This document shows, in pieces, positions 20,468-22,213 of a DNA stretch of 64,000 bases. The notes beneath the pieces were generated by a model. That model searched no databases and was not told the origin of the DNA. It worked only from the letters and a program-made list of their open reading frames with translations. How positions within the stretch are numbered: the stretch's first letter is position 1; the number at the start of each line of letters is the position of its first letter. Source of the DNA: Escherichia phage vB_EcoM_LMP25. The translations under genes were made by a program, and so were the position numbers. Where the stretch lies: the sequence record MK482688.1, one strand, 5' to 3'.

Positions 20468-20500
20468 TGAGCAGCATAAACCAACGGGTACTCACCAGCA

Positions 20501-20538
20501 TCACTTAAGAGTCTTCTAAGAGGGTTTTTAAGTGATGT
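20501..20538. repeat. Box A (38 bp, CACTTAAGAGTCTTCTAAGAGGGTTTTTAAGTGATGTG), copy 1
   Basis: Near-identical to 22037-22074 (two substitutions); a partial third copy lies at 20783-20816. Confidence 0.8.
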
Positions 20539-20544
20539 GTAGCT

Positions 20545-20612
20545 CGGTCAGGTATGGTGCGGTGGTGTAAGGTGGTGTCAGGTGTAGTATGGTGCGGTGA
20601 TGTGAGGTATGG
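20545..20612. repeat. GGTNN pentanucleotide-periodic tract 1
   Basis: ggtca|ggtat|ggtgc|ggtgg|tgtaa|ggtgg|tgtca|ggtgt|agtat|ggtgc|ggtga|tgtga|ggtat|gggta: GGT recurs every 5 nt for about 14 units. Confidence 0.8.
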
Positions 20613-20617
20613 GTAGT

Positions 20618-20643
20618 TAGTCTCAGCTACATTAAAATGAGAC
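20618..20643. repeat. Hairpin 1 (copy A): AGTCTCA-[GCTACATTAAAA]-TGAGACT
   Basis: Perfect 7-bp inverted repeat; loop shared with 22007-22032 while the stem sequence differs with compensating changes. Confidence 0.7.
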
Positions 20644-20650
20644 TTACCTT

Positions 20651-20684
20651 TTTAAAAGGTCTTTAAACAGGGTCTTTTAATAAG
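20651..20684. repeat. Box B (34 bp, TTAAAAGGTCTTTAAACAGGGTCTTTTAATAAGG), copy 1
   Basis: Near-identical copy at 21917-21950 (one substitution). Confidence 0.8.
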
Positions 20685-20749
20685 GTAGTGTCAGGTTAGG
20701 TTAGGTGCGTTTTGGTAGGGTAGGGTAAGGTTCGGTAAGGTATGGGTGG
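20685..20749. repeat. GGTNN pentanucleotide-periodic tract 2
   Basis: taggt|taggt|gcgtt|ttggt|agggt|agggt|aaggt|tcggt|aaggt|atggg: 5-nt periodicity of GGT. Confidence 0.8.
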
Positions 20750-20777
20750 ATGGTAGTAGCCACGTTAAAAATCTACC
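20750..20777. repeat. Hairpin 2 (copy A): TGGTAG-[TAGCCACGTTAAAAAT]-CTACCA
   Basis: 6-bp inverted repeat; the counterpart at 22133-22160 has TGGCAG/CTGCCA (compensatory T>C and A>G). Confidence 0.7.
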
Positions 20778-20853
20778 AAGTTTCTAAAGAGTCTTCTGTT
20801 GAGGGTTCTTTACAAACAACTTAACAATCAACTAAAGTGTGGAGCTAAATGCT

Positions 20854-21441
20854 ATGAAACTGCTAAATATCAAAATCACTGGTACTCGTCCTTTCTTGAG
20901 CCATAACGATACGCTGTCAGACCCATTAAACCCCCTGACAAAATATCACAAGTCTCTGTCCAGTAAACGTAAAAAGACTGACGAAGACTATGCGCTCTTA
21001 GCAGAAAGCCAACTGGTAACTTCTTGCTACTACGATGAGCAGCTAGGTTTTGTTATGAACGGTGAGATGATTGAGGCTTGTATCAAGTCTGGTGCAAAAC
21101 TCAATAAACTTGGTAAGGTAATTGACCGAGCCATTATGCTGACAGATGTAGTCTTCCCAATGACTATCAAGAACTGTCCAGCAAACCCACAAGAACTTGC
21201 TAAGAATCCAGACTTTATCTATGCTAAGTCTGTTAAGATTGGTACAGCACGAGTTATGAGCTACCGTCCAATCTTCCGTGACTGGTCTGTAGAGTTCGGT
21301 TTGATGTTCGATGAAGAGCAAATCACCAAAGAAGAACTCTTGATGGTTCTGGAAAATGCTGGTAACCTTTGTGGTGTAGGTGATTGGCGTCCACGCTTTG
21401 GTCGTTTTTCTGTAGAAGTTATTTCAGAAGGTAACGTTTAA
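20854..21441 (+). CDS. Hypothetical protein (first gene of the repeat-flanked cassette)
   Basis: ORF 20839..21441; start preferred at the ATG at 20854 (GGAG RBS about 10 nt upstream). No recognisable motif. Confidence 0.45.
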
Positions 21442-21443
21442 TT

Positions 21444-21884
21444 ATGAATACAAAAGCATTAGCAGCAAAGTTTAGTTACGGTGACACTGTATCACATTCT
21501 GAGATGGATACCTTCTTAGGTATTGTGAAGCCAACTTATCAAGGTGACATTGTTAAGTACGAAGATGAAATGAAGGCTTATGCACTTACACGACTAAACC
21601 GACTTGAGAAGTTTATTGAAAAGCTTCTTAAAGAAGAGAAGATTTATCTGGTTGCTTCAATGGGTGTTGGTTATCGTGTTGTTGAACCTAAGCATCAAGC
21701 AACTATTGCAAAACGTAAAATGTCTGGTAAGATTGGTCGAGCTTTAAAGCAAGCTACTCAAGCGATTGAGAATGTGAACACTATGGCACTTAGTCACCAA
21801 GAACGTTCACGACTGATTGAACAGCAAAATCACTTAGCTGCTATGAAAGCTAATATTAACAAGCAACGCAGAAAACCTTTCTAA
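21444..21884 (+). CDS. Hypothetical protein (second cassette gene; basic C-terminus)
   Basis: 146-aa ORF immediately after the previous gene; lysine/arginine-rich C-terminal helix. Confidence 0.45.
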   Translation: MNTKALAAKFSYGDTVSHSEMDTFLGIVKPTYQGDIVKYEDEMKAYALTRLNRLEKFIEKLLKEEKIYLVASMGVGYRVVEPKHQATIAKRKMSGKIGRALKQATQAIENVNTMALSHQERSRLIEQQNHLAAMKANINKQRRKPF

Positions 21885-21896
21885 GTTGACTAGGTA

Positions 21897-21917
21897 GCCT
21901 CTTCGGAGGCTCCTTTT
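21897..21917 (+). terminator. Intrinsic terminator GCCTC-TTCG-GAGGC followed by TCCTTTTT
   Basis: GC stem with TTCG tetraloop and T-run directly after the 21884 stop. Confidence 0.55.
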
Positions 21918-21950
21918 TAAAAGGTCTTTAAACAGGGTCTTTTAACAAGG
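21917..21950. repeat. Box B, copy 2
   Basis: TTAAAAGGTCTTTAAACAGGGTCTTTTAACAAGG. Confidence 0.8.
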
Positions 21951-22003
21951 CTTAGCTTGGTTAGGTATGGTAAGGTGGTGTTTGGTGTTGTAAGGTATGG
22001 GTA
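21951..22003. repeat. GGTNN pentanucleotide-periodic tract 3
   Basis: gttag|gtatg|gtaag|gtggt|gtttg|gtgtt|gtaag|gtatg. Confidence 0.75.
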
Positions 22004-22006
22004 GTT

Positions 22007-22032
22007 AATCGGAGCTACATAAAAATTCGATT
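22007..22032. repeat. Hairpin 1 (copy B): AATCGGA-[GCTACATAAAAA]-TTCGATT
   Basis: 7-bp stem with one G-T pair; loop conserved with 20618-20643. Confidence 0.7.
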
Positions 22033-22036
22033 ACAT

Positions 22037-22074
22037 CACTTAAGAGTCTTTTAAGAGGGTTTTTAAGTGAGGTG
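22037..22074. repeat. Box A, copy 2
   Basis: CACTTAAGAGTCTTTTAAGAGGGTTTTTAAGTGAGGTG. Confidence 0.8.
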
Positions 22075-22130
22075 TGGCACAGTAATGTTAGGTAGGGTCA
22101 GGTCAGGTCAGGTGAGGTAATGTATGGAAG
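22075..22130. repeat. GGTNN pentanucleotide-periodic tract 4
   Basis: aggta|gggtc|aggtc|aggtc|aggtg|aggta|atgta|tgg. Confidence 0.75.
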
Positions 22131-22132
22131 GA

Positions 22133-22160
22133 TGGCAGTAGCCTTATAAAAAATCTGCCA
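22133..22160. repeat. Hairpin 2 (copy B): TGGCAG-[TAGCCTTATAAAAAAT]-CTGCCA
   Basis: Compensatory stem changes relative to 20750-20777. Confidence 0.7.
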
Positions 22161-22163
22161 AAT

Positions 22164-22213
22164 AAGCTATAAAATCTGTTGACAAGTCAGGTGTTATAGC
22201 TTATTTTTATACT
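22164..22213 (+). promoter_or_regulatory. Putative promoter (TTGACA at 22179) embedded in a 9-bp inverted repeat AAGCTATAA...TTATAGCTT (operator-like)
   Basis: -35 consensus hexamer centred between perfect 9-bp inverted-repeat arms (22164-22172 / 22194-22202); -10 is ambiguous (TATTTT or TATACT). Confidence 0.4.

Follow-up and report, generated by a model that had tools for sequence, protein, structure and literature searches.

Pentamer-repeat tracts around a two-gene cassette of Escherichia phage vB_EcoM_LMP25 as guide RNAs of a type II VIPR locus

The 64,000-nucleotide stretch of Escherichia phage vB_EcoM_LMP25 that was analyzed here (sequence record MK482688.1, referred to below as the window) raises the question of what is encoded by four intergenic tracts in which GGT recurs every 5 nt. 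The tracts had been noticed in the sequence alone at 20545-20612, 20685-20749, 21951-22003, and 22075-22130, bracketing open reading frames (ORFs) within 20854..21884, and this original prediction considered a leader RNA wrapped around a ring-shaped protein, or primase recognition sites. Reading of 20300-22400 bore out the tract positions to within a few bases and resolved the bracketed ORFs as 20854-21441 and 21444-21884. The evidence described below makes it almost certain that 20441-22159 holds a VIPR (Viral Interference Programmable Repeat) locus of type II and of the SUSP1 clade, in which the tracts are the guide RNAs (vrRNAs) and flank the gene pair vipr-vap1, two tracts upstream and two downstream.

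The strict 5-nt period that had been claimed for the tracts is real. In the Fourier analysis that had been proposed as a check, the period-5 power of G in 60-nt segments was 3 to 4.3 in the tracts, compared to a median of 0.10 and a 99.9th percentile of 1.53 over the window, and all 25 of the 25 strongest segments in the 64 kb were located in this locus. When the entire 64 kb was scanned on both strands for five or more phased GGT per 50 nt, only four places came up, all on the + strand. A repeat search placed the four units in one family (D3), with starts at 20499, 20647, 21912, and 22034, and each unit consists of a box of ~40 nt, a tract with a 5-nt period, and a structured 3' end.

The pentamers have the form G-G-Y-N-N, in which G-Y at positions 2 and 3 is the invariant feature and the last two positions (NN) vary freely. 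GGY was present in 34 of the 49 units; 14 of the other 15 were T/A-G-Y, and one was GTT (GTTTT, in vrRNA2). The repeat (guide) regions are all on the + strand. With degenerate 5' units included, vrRNA1 has 15 units (20536..20610; 13 core units from 20546, preceded by TGTGT and AGCTC, the NN of both of which also match the target described below), vrRNA2 has 12 (20684..20743), vrRNA3 has 10 (21949..21998), and vrRNA4 has 12 (22066..22125; 11 to 12 in register).

The gene at 20854..21441 (+ strand) encodes a minimal RAMP protein of 195 amino acids that matched PDB entry 36pp_D, "SUSP1 Vipr protein," with an E-value of 6e-128 and 191/195 identical residues (98%). A profile of 40 homologues matched one solved structure, which was again 36pp_D (E = 3e-80). 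The AlphaFold2 model of the protein (pLDDT, 95.4) shows a RAMP fold that has an RRM core, a loop rich in glycine (G-loop), and a thumb, and the best solved folds in a Foldseek search were the RAMPs Csm3 and type VII Cas7. The C-terminal motif of the family, A-G-x3-G-[ILV]-G-D-x-R-P-x-F-G-R-F, resembles the RAMP glycine-rich loop. For SUSP1 Vipr, bioRxiv 10.64898/2026.04.26.720927 names 13 residues as contacts to RNA or DNA (to G1, G2, or Y3, to the base that is skipped, or to the non-target strand), and all of them are conserved (H17, K33, R39, E71, M72, K82, G87, K88, R138, C173, D177, W178, and R179). The second gene, vap1 (21444..21884, + strand), is a vipr-accessory gene whose product of 146 amino acids is identical at 145/146 positions to SUSP1 agp038, which follows vipr there. 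The two proteins belong to PHROG 4652 (Vipr) and PHROG 5926 (vap1), both families of unknown function, and a PADLOC search with the cassette proteins gave no match.

The element is already known; the locus is an orthologue of the experimentally characterized SUSP1 system and is not a new kind of system. The original prediction that no element with this architecture had been described was overtaken by two 2026 bioRxiv preprints on VIPR (10.64898/2026.04.26.720920 and 10.64898/2026.04.26.720927), and the account in this paragraph follows them. VIPR, a relative of CRISPR, silences DNA under the guidance of RNA and comprises Vipr (~20 kDa, a proposed ancestral RAMP), an accessory gene (vap), and vrRNAs of ~100 nt, in which 9 to 16 YNNGG repeats are followed by an invariable tail that is a pseudoknot in the SUSP1 clade. 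In the cryo-electron microscopy (cryo-EM) structure (10.64898/2026.04.26.720927), there is one Vipr protomer per pentamer, and GGY is sequestered while NN is presented. NN pairs with double-stranded DNA by a "1-nt skip" rule (xNNxNN...), with the skipped base usually being the wobble position of a codon; no protospacer-adjacent motif (PAM) is needed, either strand can be targeted, and the complex forms an R-loop triplex with silencing of transcription. Guides of the SUSP1 clade mostly aim at a satellite phage in Escherichia coli genomes. The evidence for SUSP1 consists of small-RNA sequencing, pull-down, repression of green fluorescent protein, cryo-EM, and enhancement by vap1, and the authors propose that VIPR is older than CRISPR.

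The locus in the window has the order two vrRNA genes, vipr, vap1, and two more vrRNA genes, and each vrRNA is predicted to be ~100 nt long, with 10 to 15 GGY-NN pentamers and then a 34-nt pseudoknot tail. No feature of the sequence contradicts the VIPR reading.

The association of such tracts with Vipr extends beyond the window. The IMG/VR database was scanned with the bare DNA pattern (GGTNN)6GGT, which returned at least 120 loci; the results that follow are for the matches listed, with trivial perfect microsatellites set aside. At least 147 tracts in at least 64 loci had variable NN, in phage contigs with 29 to 68% G+C, and tract sizes peaked at 9 and at 11 to 12 units. At least 65 tracts had a same-strand gene within 200 nt downstream, versus at least 11 with a divergent gene. 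In an all-against-all BLASTP comparison of the ORFs, there was one dominant family, which occurred once in each of at least 38 loci and the window, adjoining the tracts, and its member in the window was Vipr (E-values, 5e-43 to 1e-6). Because the loci had been picked by DNA pattern alone, this association is independent. Periodicity alone was enough for a blind reader to spot such a system.

These tract sizes and orientations also bear on the possibility that the tracts are cis leader RNAs that bind a TRAP-like ring and regulate the cassette by attenuation or by occlusion of the ribosome-binding site. The 5-nt period equals the optimal repeat spacing of TRAP, the clustering of tract sizes at 9 and 11 to 12 units across phages would suit such a ring, and many of the listed tracts in other phages lie 15 to 40 nt upstream of a same-strand ribosome-binding site. 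More generally, TRAP and VIPR share a triplet that is repeated 9 to 13 times with 2-nt spacers and one protein subunit per repeat. However, the folds are unrelated, and the TRAP ring has 11 to 12 subunits, whereas VIPR forms an open helical filament. The triplet is (G/U)AG for TRAP and GGY here; the spacers carry no information in TRAP, whereas in VIPR they are the guide; and TRAP works in cis, on a leader RNA, whereas the vrRNAs work in trans and on DNA. A TRAP-regulated leader calls for an MtrB (TrpBP) protein and for 9 to 11 (G/U)AG triplets that lie over an antiterminator or a ribosome-binding site. In Pfam, no match to TrpBP or to any other family was obtained with either cassette protein, and the product of the first gene is a filament-forming RAMP. 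Of the four tracts, two come after the cassette, with the promoter of an unrelated gene behind them, and relatives without the cassette keep the tracts. The NN positions hold information that matches foreign genes, for which a ring-binding leader has no need. The target matches and the identity of Vipr refute this explanation in substance, and we consider it very improbable.

What stands of the original prediction of a protein-wrapped RNA is that the 5-nt period is the register of a protein on RNA, as described in the cryo-EM preprint (10.64898/2026.04.26.720927). The cassette proteins were also the right partner to look for on tract RNA, since the first gene is vipr. The ring and the cis leader did not hold up: Vipr forms a helical RAMP filament, and the RNA is a trans-acting guide of ~100 nt rather than a cis regulator of the cassette.

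The foreign genes that the guides match were found in E. coli. When the locus was compared by BLAST with 5,426 complete E. coli genomes, a vrRNA-like match of ~100 nt was present in 152 chromosomes (~3%), where it lies in a satellite island of ~11 kb with genes for a large serine recombinase, baseplate, and tape-measure proteins and small hypothetical genes. The satellite carries its own sigma-70 promoter and one vrRNA, which has the tail class of vrRNA2 in the window, and it is without vipr. It is inserted at three or more sites, in yecE, between tonB and yciI, and between wrbA and ymdF. Copies are located at 6684-17847 of the E. coli locus L130, at 6273 to ~17000 of L131, and at 1567-16863 of L128, as well as in L126, L127, and L129, and they are often riddled with insertion sequence elements. 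Strains that bear the satellite include E. coli A16 (NZ_CP028758) and S40 (NZ_CP010235).

The four guides of the window were scanned against six satellite-bearing E. coli loci under skip rules of 0, 1, 2, and 3 nt. With the 1-nt-skip rule, vrRNA1 matched a satellite tape-measure gene at 27/30 NN positions, and vrRNA2 matched a satellite tape-measure gene at 20/24 core positions (24/28 with two 5' units). The match of vrRNA3 was between the baseplate and tape-measure genes of the satellite (18/20, or 20/22 with one extra 5' unit), and that of vrRNA4 was in a small hypothetical gene of the satellite (22/24 NN positions). The predicted target sites, all on the minus strand, are L131 10008-10052, L130 10808-10849, L131 8752-8784, and L131 12609-12644 for vrRNA1 to vrRNA4. 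The other skip rules (0, 2, and 3 nt) yielded at most 20/30, 19/28, 16/20, and 18/24 for vrRNA1 to vrRNA4, which are background values, and none of 200 shuffles of unit order equaled the observed target score. On the strand of the satellite with its annotated genes, each of the four targets reads in NNx codons. The ~11-kb E. coli satellite is what all four guides aim at, and the predicted target is a tape-measure- and baseplate-carrying element in ~3% of the complete E. coli genomes.

No self-target was detected, as the best match elsewhere in the window reached 68 to 75% of NN positions. A tape-measure-like region of the window (36976-37020, - strand) resembles the vrRNA1 target and looks like a case of self-avoidance by a few substitutions; it matches at only 21/30 NN positions, and thus the vrRNA1 guide discriminates the satellite from self.

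Several observations weigh against the assignment of the tracts to a working VIPR system. Expression of vrRNAs and their binding by Vipr have been demonstrated only for SUSP1, and it is by analogy that they may be extended to proteins that are 98 to 99% identical. Fifteen of the 49 units are not GGY (14 T/A-G-Y and one GTT), and replacement of GGY with AGY abolishes silencing, as stated in the SUSP1 VIPR preprints (bioRxiv 10.64898/2026.04.26.720920 and 10.64898/2026.04.26.720927). The replacement appears to alter every unit simultaneously, and degenerate units like those of the window are also present in native SUSP1 vrRNAs 2 to 4. The guide-target matches are imperfect, at 86 to 92% with six satellite copies compared. 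In addition, a terminator-like hairpin 3' of vap1 would have to be passed for vrRNA3 and vrRNA4 to be transcribed.

The structures on either side of each tract also point to RNA. It had been predicted that each tract is followed by a hairpin, which was correct but understated, because each tail is a 34-nt H-type pseudoknot with stems of 4 bp (S1) and 7 bp (S2). Eleven distinct tails could be compared without gaps (from the window, SUSP1, bumzen, UAB_Phi87, one IMG/VR contig, and one E. coli satellite), and 9 of the 11 pairs had changes on both sides. In this comparison, 91.7% of the tail cells were paired, versus 29 to 40% when the 3' partners were slid by 1 to 3 columns. The covarying tails, all on the + strand, are at 20611..20644 for vrRNA1 (S1, GTAG/CTAC; S2, AGTCTCA/TGAGACT), 20744..20777 for vrRNA2 (GTGG/CCAC; GGTAG/CTACC), 21999..22032 for vrRNA3 (GTAG/CTAC; AATCGGA/TTCGATT), and 22126..22159 for vrRNA4 (AAGG/CCTT; GGCAG/CTGCC). 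The tail class of vrRNA2 is identical to that of SUSP1 vrRNA1 and to that of the vrRNA of the satellite itself. In an Rfam scan of 19500-23000 with E-values up to 10, the best E-value was 0.29 and all matches were far below the gathering score; vrRNAs are absent from Rfam 15.

The start of each tract is complementary to the tail of its own vrRNA (20539-20545 versus 20626-20632, 20684-20688 versus 20772-20776, 21950-21956 versus 22014-22019, and 22077-22081 versus 22154-22158), with examples such as TGTAGCT with AGCTACA, GGTAG with CTACC, and TGGCA with TGCCA. An alternative pairing of this kind could loop the guide closed, in competition with the pseudoknot.

The conserved box that had been predicted before each tract was also confirmed; it folds into a hairpin of ~40 nt in which G.U pairs are abundant. 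Type A hairpins are located directly before vrRNA1 (20498..20538, + strand; a 19-bp stem with several G.U pairs, -20 kcal/mol, z = -5.6 versus shuffles, conserved in SUSP1) and before vrRNA4 (22033..22073, + strand; -14.2 kcal/mol, z = -4.2). Those of type B are between vrRNA1 and vrRNA2 (20645..20687, + strand; -13.6 kcal/mol, z = -3.6) and before vrRNA3 (21912..21950, + strand; -10.7 kcal/mol, z = -2.5). A fifth hairpin of the family lies between vrRNA2 and the ribosome-binding site of vipr (20780..20817, + strand; -13.6 kcal/mol, z = -2.9), which brings the hairpins associated with the four vrRNAs and this ribosome-binding site to five, with z-scores of -2.5 to -5.6. The outer stems vary by type and stay paired, and the inner stem relies on G.U pairs (AGAGUCUUC with GAGGGUUUU). 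Because of this dependence, the hairpins fold in + strand RNA only.

We suggest that the G.U-rich 5' hairpins may be processing signals, possibly of the RNase III type, that free individual vrRNAs from a long transcript; they could instead be a loading signal. In other VIPR types, hammerhead ribozymes serve the release of vrRNAs. No mention of the 5' hairpins, or of the orphan vrRNAs described below, was found in those parts of the text of the two VIPR preprints on which this account draws (text only, figures aside). It is possible, although less likely than not, that these hairpins and orphan vrRNAs are undescribed parts of type II VIPR biology.

The same structures make it possible to evaluate whether the tracts might act as DNA, in the form of an array of primase sites, a replication origin based on R-loops or G-quadruplexes, or a signal for packaging or terminal repeats. 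A few units read GGGTC, AGGTC, or GTGTC, which are similar to T7 primase sites, as had been pointed out in the original prediction, and a G-rich non-template strand downstream of a strong promoter favors R-loops. However, GTC, the core that recurs in the primase sites (G/T)GGTC and GTGTC, is present in only 6 of the 49 units, where its bases are guide positions that match satellite genes, and the periodic element is GGY whatever base follows; the resemblance to primase sites is incidental. G.U pairs contribute to the pseudoknots and hairpins, and these covary solely on the + strand, which points to RNA; the tracts adjoin a RAMP gene in unrelated phages among the listed IMG/VR matches. Phage UAB_Phi87 also argues against a terminal location, as in it the array is at 58 kb of an 87.6-kb record, an argument that holds only if the record begins at the physical end. 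That genome ends in direct terminal repeats of 608 bp, which were located by Bal31 digestion together with sequencing of the terminal fragments (PMC4837284). We consider a DNA-level function of the tracts exceedingly improbable.

Signals in transcription or translation have similarly little to recommend them. The antisense strand, (NNACC)n, is C-rich and G-poor, as a Rho-loading (rut) site should be, and 12 units of 5 nt amount to ~60 nt, near the footprint of the primary binding site of Rho. The sense RNA could act as a Shine-Dalgarno sponge through AGGU and GGUGA, which are Shine-Dalgarno-like, or as a boxA/boxC antitermination site, as GGTCTTTAAACA in the boxes resembles the rrn boxA TGCTCTTTAACAA. 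However, no minus-strand promoter faces the tracts; the only minus-strand candidate (21160-21133, 9/12) is inside vipr. The boxA-like bases are paired within a hairpin stem. None of these functions explains the match of NN to satellite genes under one skip rule or the neighborhood of Vipr, and we assign them hardly any probability at all. The association with Vipr and the match to PDB 36pp were the reasons for which TRAP, rut, origin, nut-like, sponge, decoy, and packaging interpretations were dropped. Readings of the tracts as a STAB-SD stabilizer or as Chi-like, BREX (GGTAAG), or PAM decoys were set aside at the same point, and the small RNAs of phage PAK_P3 proved to be unrelated to the tracts. 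A literature search for similar pentanucleotide repeats or noncoding RNAs and for Felixounavirus transcriptome sequencing found nothing relevant.

Transcription of the VIPR locus can be traced in part from its signals. The promoter at 20441..20468 (+ strand) is of the sigma-70 type (TTGACA-16-TATACT, 11/12 consensus) and is in the same position in SUSP1, UAB_Phi87, and skuden. It would drive the upstream vrRNA pair and probably also vipr and vap. After vap1, there is an intrinsic-terminator-like hairpin with a T-run at 21896..21919 (+ strand), the T-run of which overlaps the next 5' hairpin. No convincing sigma-70 promoter was found inside the boxes, and with no good promoter in between, vrRNA3 and vrRNA4 would need read-through of this hairpin. 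The promoter of the next gene (22252-22635), at 22179..22207 (+ strand, 10/12 consensus), bounds the locus on the right and is outside the VIPR element. On the left, the interval from the DNA ligase gene to the VIPR promoter contains a 48-codon ORF for a very hydrophobic peptide (20287-20433, + strand), which is both conserved and annotated in UAB_Phi87 (Phi87_107).

From the 98 to 99% protein identity and the identical tail classes, we infer that this phage would express vrRNAs of ~100 nt that copurify with Vipr and repress their targets, and the near-identity of the two systems is the reason for carrying the SUSP1 mechanism over to it. A transcript would start at the 20441-20468 promoter and run through vrRNA1, vrRNA2, vipr, and vap1, and read-through of the terminator-like hairpin at 21896-21919 would then yield vrRNA3 and vrRNA4. 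Vipr is expected to polymerize along the vrRNA, with one protomer per pentamer, each of which would sequester GGY and expose the NN dinucleotide. NN would pair with double-stranded DNA read as xNNxNN..., with every third base of the target, usually the wobble position, being skipped. The complex of Vipr and vrRNA would form an R-loop triplex, blocking transcription and so silencing competing mobile elements, and vap1 would enhance the silencing.

The systems of the two phages can be compared directly. Vipr is 98% identical and vap1 is 99% identical to the SUSP1 proteins, and in both phages the locus is positioned between the DNA ligase gene and the equivalent of 22252-22635, with the syntenic order ligase, promoter, vrRNA, vipr, vap, vrRNAs, and promoter. 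The promoter, the 5' hairpin classes, three tail classes, and the targeted E. coli satellite family are also shared. The two differ in that SUSP1 has one vrRNA upstream and three downstream, versus two and two in the window, and in all of the guide (NN) sequences. SUSP1 is a Suspvirus, whereas the window is from a Felixounavirus and its system is known from sequence alone.

The 1,851-nt locus is 100% identical to that of Escherichia phages vB_EcoM_LMP34 and LMP33 and ~90 to 95% identical to that of a large set of Felixounavirus genomes. The record of phage wV8 labels the tracts only as repeat "DR_4," and in other records the two ORFs are hypothetical; direct repeats are listed in the Felix O1 and wV8 papers, and these tracts are not among them. 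The VIPR assignment gives a Felix O1-like phage a defined inter-phage weapon in place of a pair of "hypothetical proteins" and of "intergenic" DNA amounting to 1.1 kb. Among the window, SUSP1, UAB_Phi87, and skuden, NN differs, and the phase and the GY positions are kept.

Many relatives have vrRNA genes and no cassette. A tblastn search found Vipr at 92% identity or more in 117 deposited Ounavirinae genomes, compared to 229 phage records with a box and vrRNA, which leaves ~110 (about half) without vipr and vap. In the related Felixounavirus UAB_Phi87 (2940-3250 of the locus extracted as L004), the same promoter leads into two vrRNA genes whose tails are intact, and in skuden, also a Felixounavirus (1140-1330 of L132), it leads into one such gene; vipr and vap are missing from both. 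Guide "a" of the UAB_Phi87 orphan pair matches a satellite gene at 19/22 core positions (22/26 extended), with a shuffle maximum of 18. No significant target was found in the six satellite copies for the skuden guide, UAB_Phi87 guide "b," or three of the four SUSP1 guides. The orphan vrRNAs might rely on Vipr provided in trans, a necessity for the vipr-less satellites, or they might instead be decoys that titrate the Vipr of a competitor.

The absence of vipr and vap from UAB_Phi87 and skuden, which keep the flanking units, is reminiscent of the PeSL-flanked mobile gene cassettes of T4-type phages, in which repeated promoter and stem-loop units surround a small cassette that is present in some relatives only. 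The repeated units in the window differ in that they are functional guide-RNA genes, beyond recombination or regulatory modules.

The class of RNA-guided DNA recognition that VIPR represents is newly reported and consists of one RAMP protein of ~20 kDa plus a guide RNA coded in repeats. One of its closest parallels is the backbone of class 1 CRISPR-Cas, in which Cas7 or Csm3 forms a filament on the crRNA. The RAMP fold, polymerization along a guide RNA, and bases flipped out at a fixed period are common to both. However, VIPR has a period of 5 nt where class 1 CRISPR-Cas has 6, three of the guide bases in each unit are sequestered so that only two pair, and the target is read with a 1-nt skip. 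VIPR is without a CRISPR array, spacer acquisition genes, or other cas genes, and it is phage-encoded and aimed at other mobile elements. No CRISPR array (identical direct repeats with unique spacers) was found in the window, which has a single RAMP gene and no PADLOC match. The relationship of the fold to Cas7 is real, but VIPR is a sister system to CRISPR and not CRISPR.

Other arrangements of tracts were observed in IMG/VR (6114-6498 of L007; 4600-5047 of L124; L011 to L014, which are one 189-kb contig; L104, L114, and L115; and L111). They include six or seven vrRNA-like tracts head to tail, with AAGGCTAATG or GGCAGGT as separators, a jumbo-phage contig on which at least eight tracts are spread upstream of different genes, and a long hairpin (TTGCAGAGAGG...CCATCTCTCTGCAA) whose loop is the tract. 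These architectures probably correspond to the "staggered" and further array types of the preprint.

Two other repeat-rich regions of the window were noted. A dense cluster of tRNA-like repeats at 49760-54800 (- strand; families D1, D2, D7, and D9) is presumably the tRNA gene block expected in Felix O1-like phages. Families of imperfect direct repeats of 27 to 67 nt (D4, D5, and D10; periods of 27 and 30 in TRF) occur in coding sequence at 26500-29320 and resemble those reported in genes 76 and 77 of Felix O1, where they are the source of the similarity that both proteins share.

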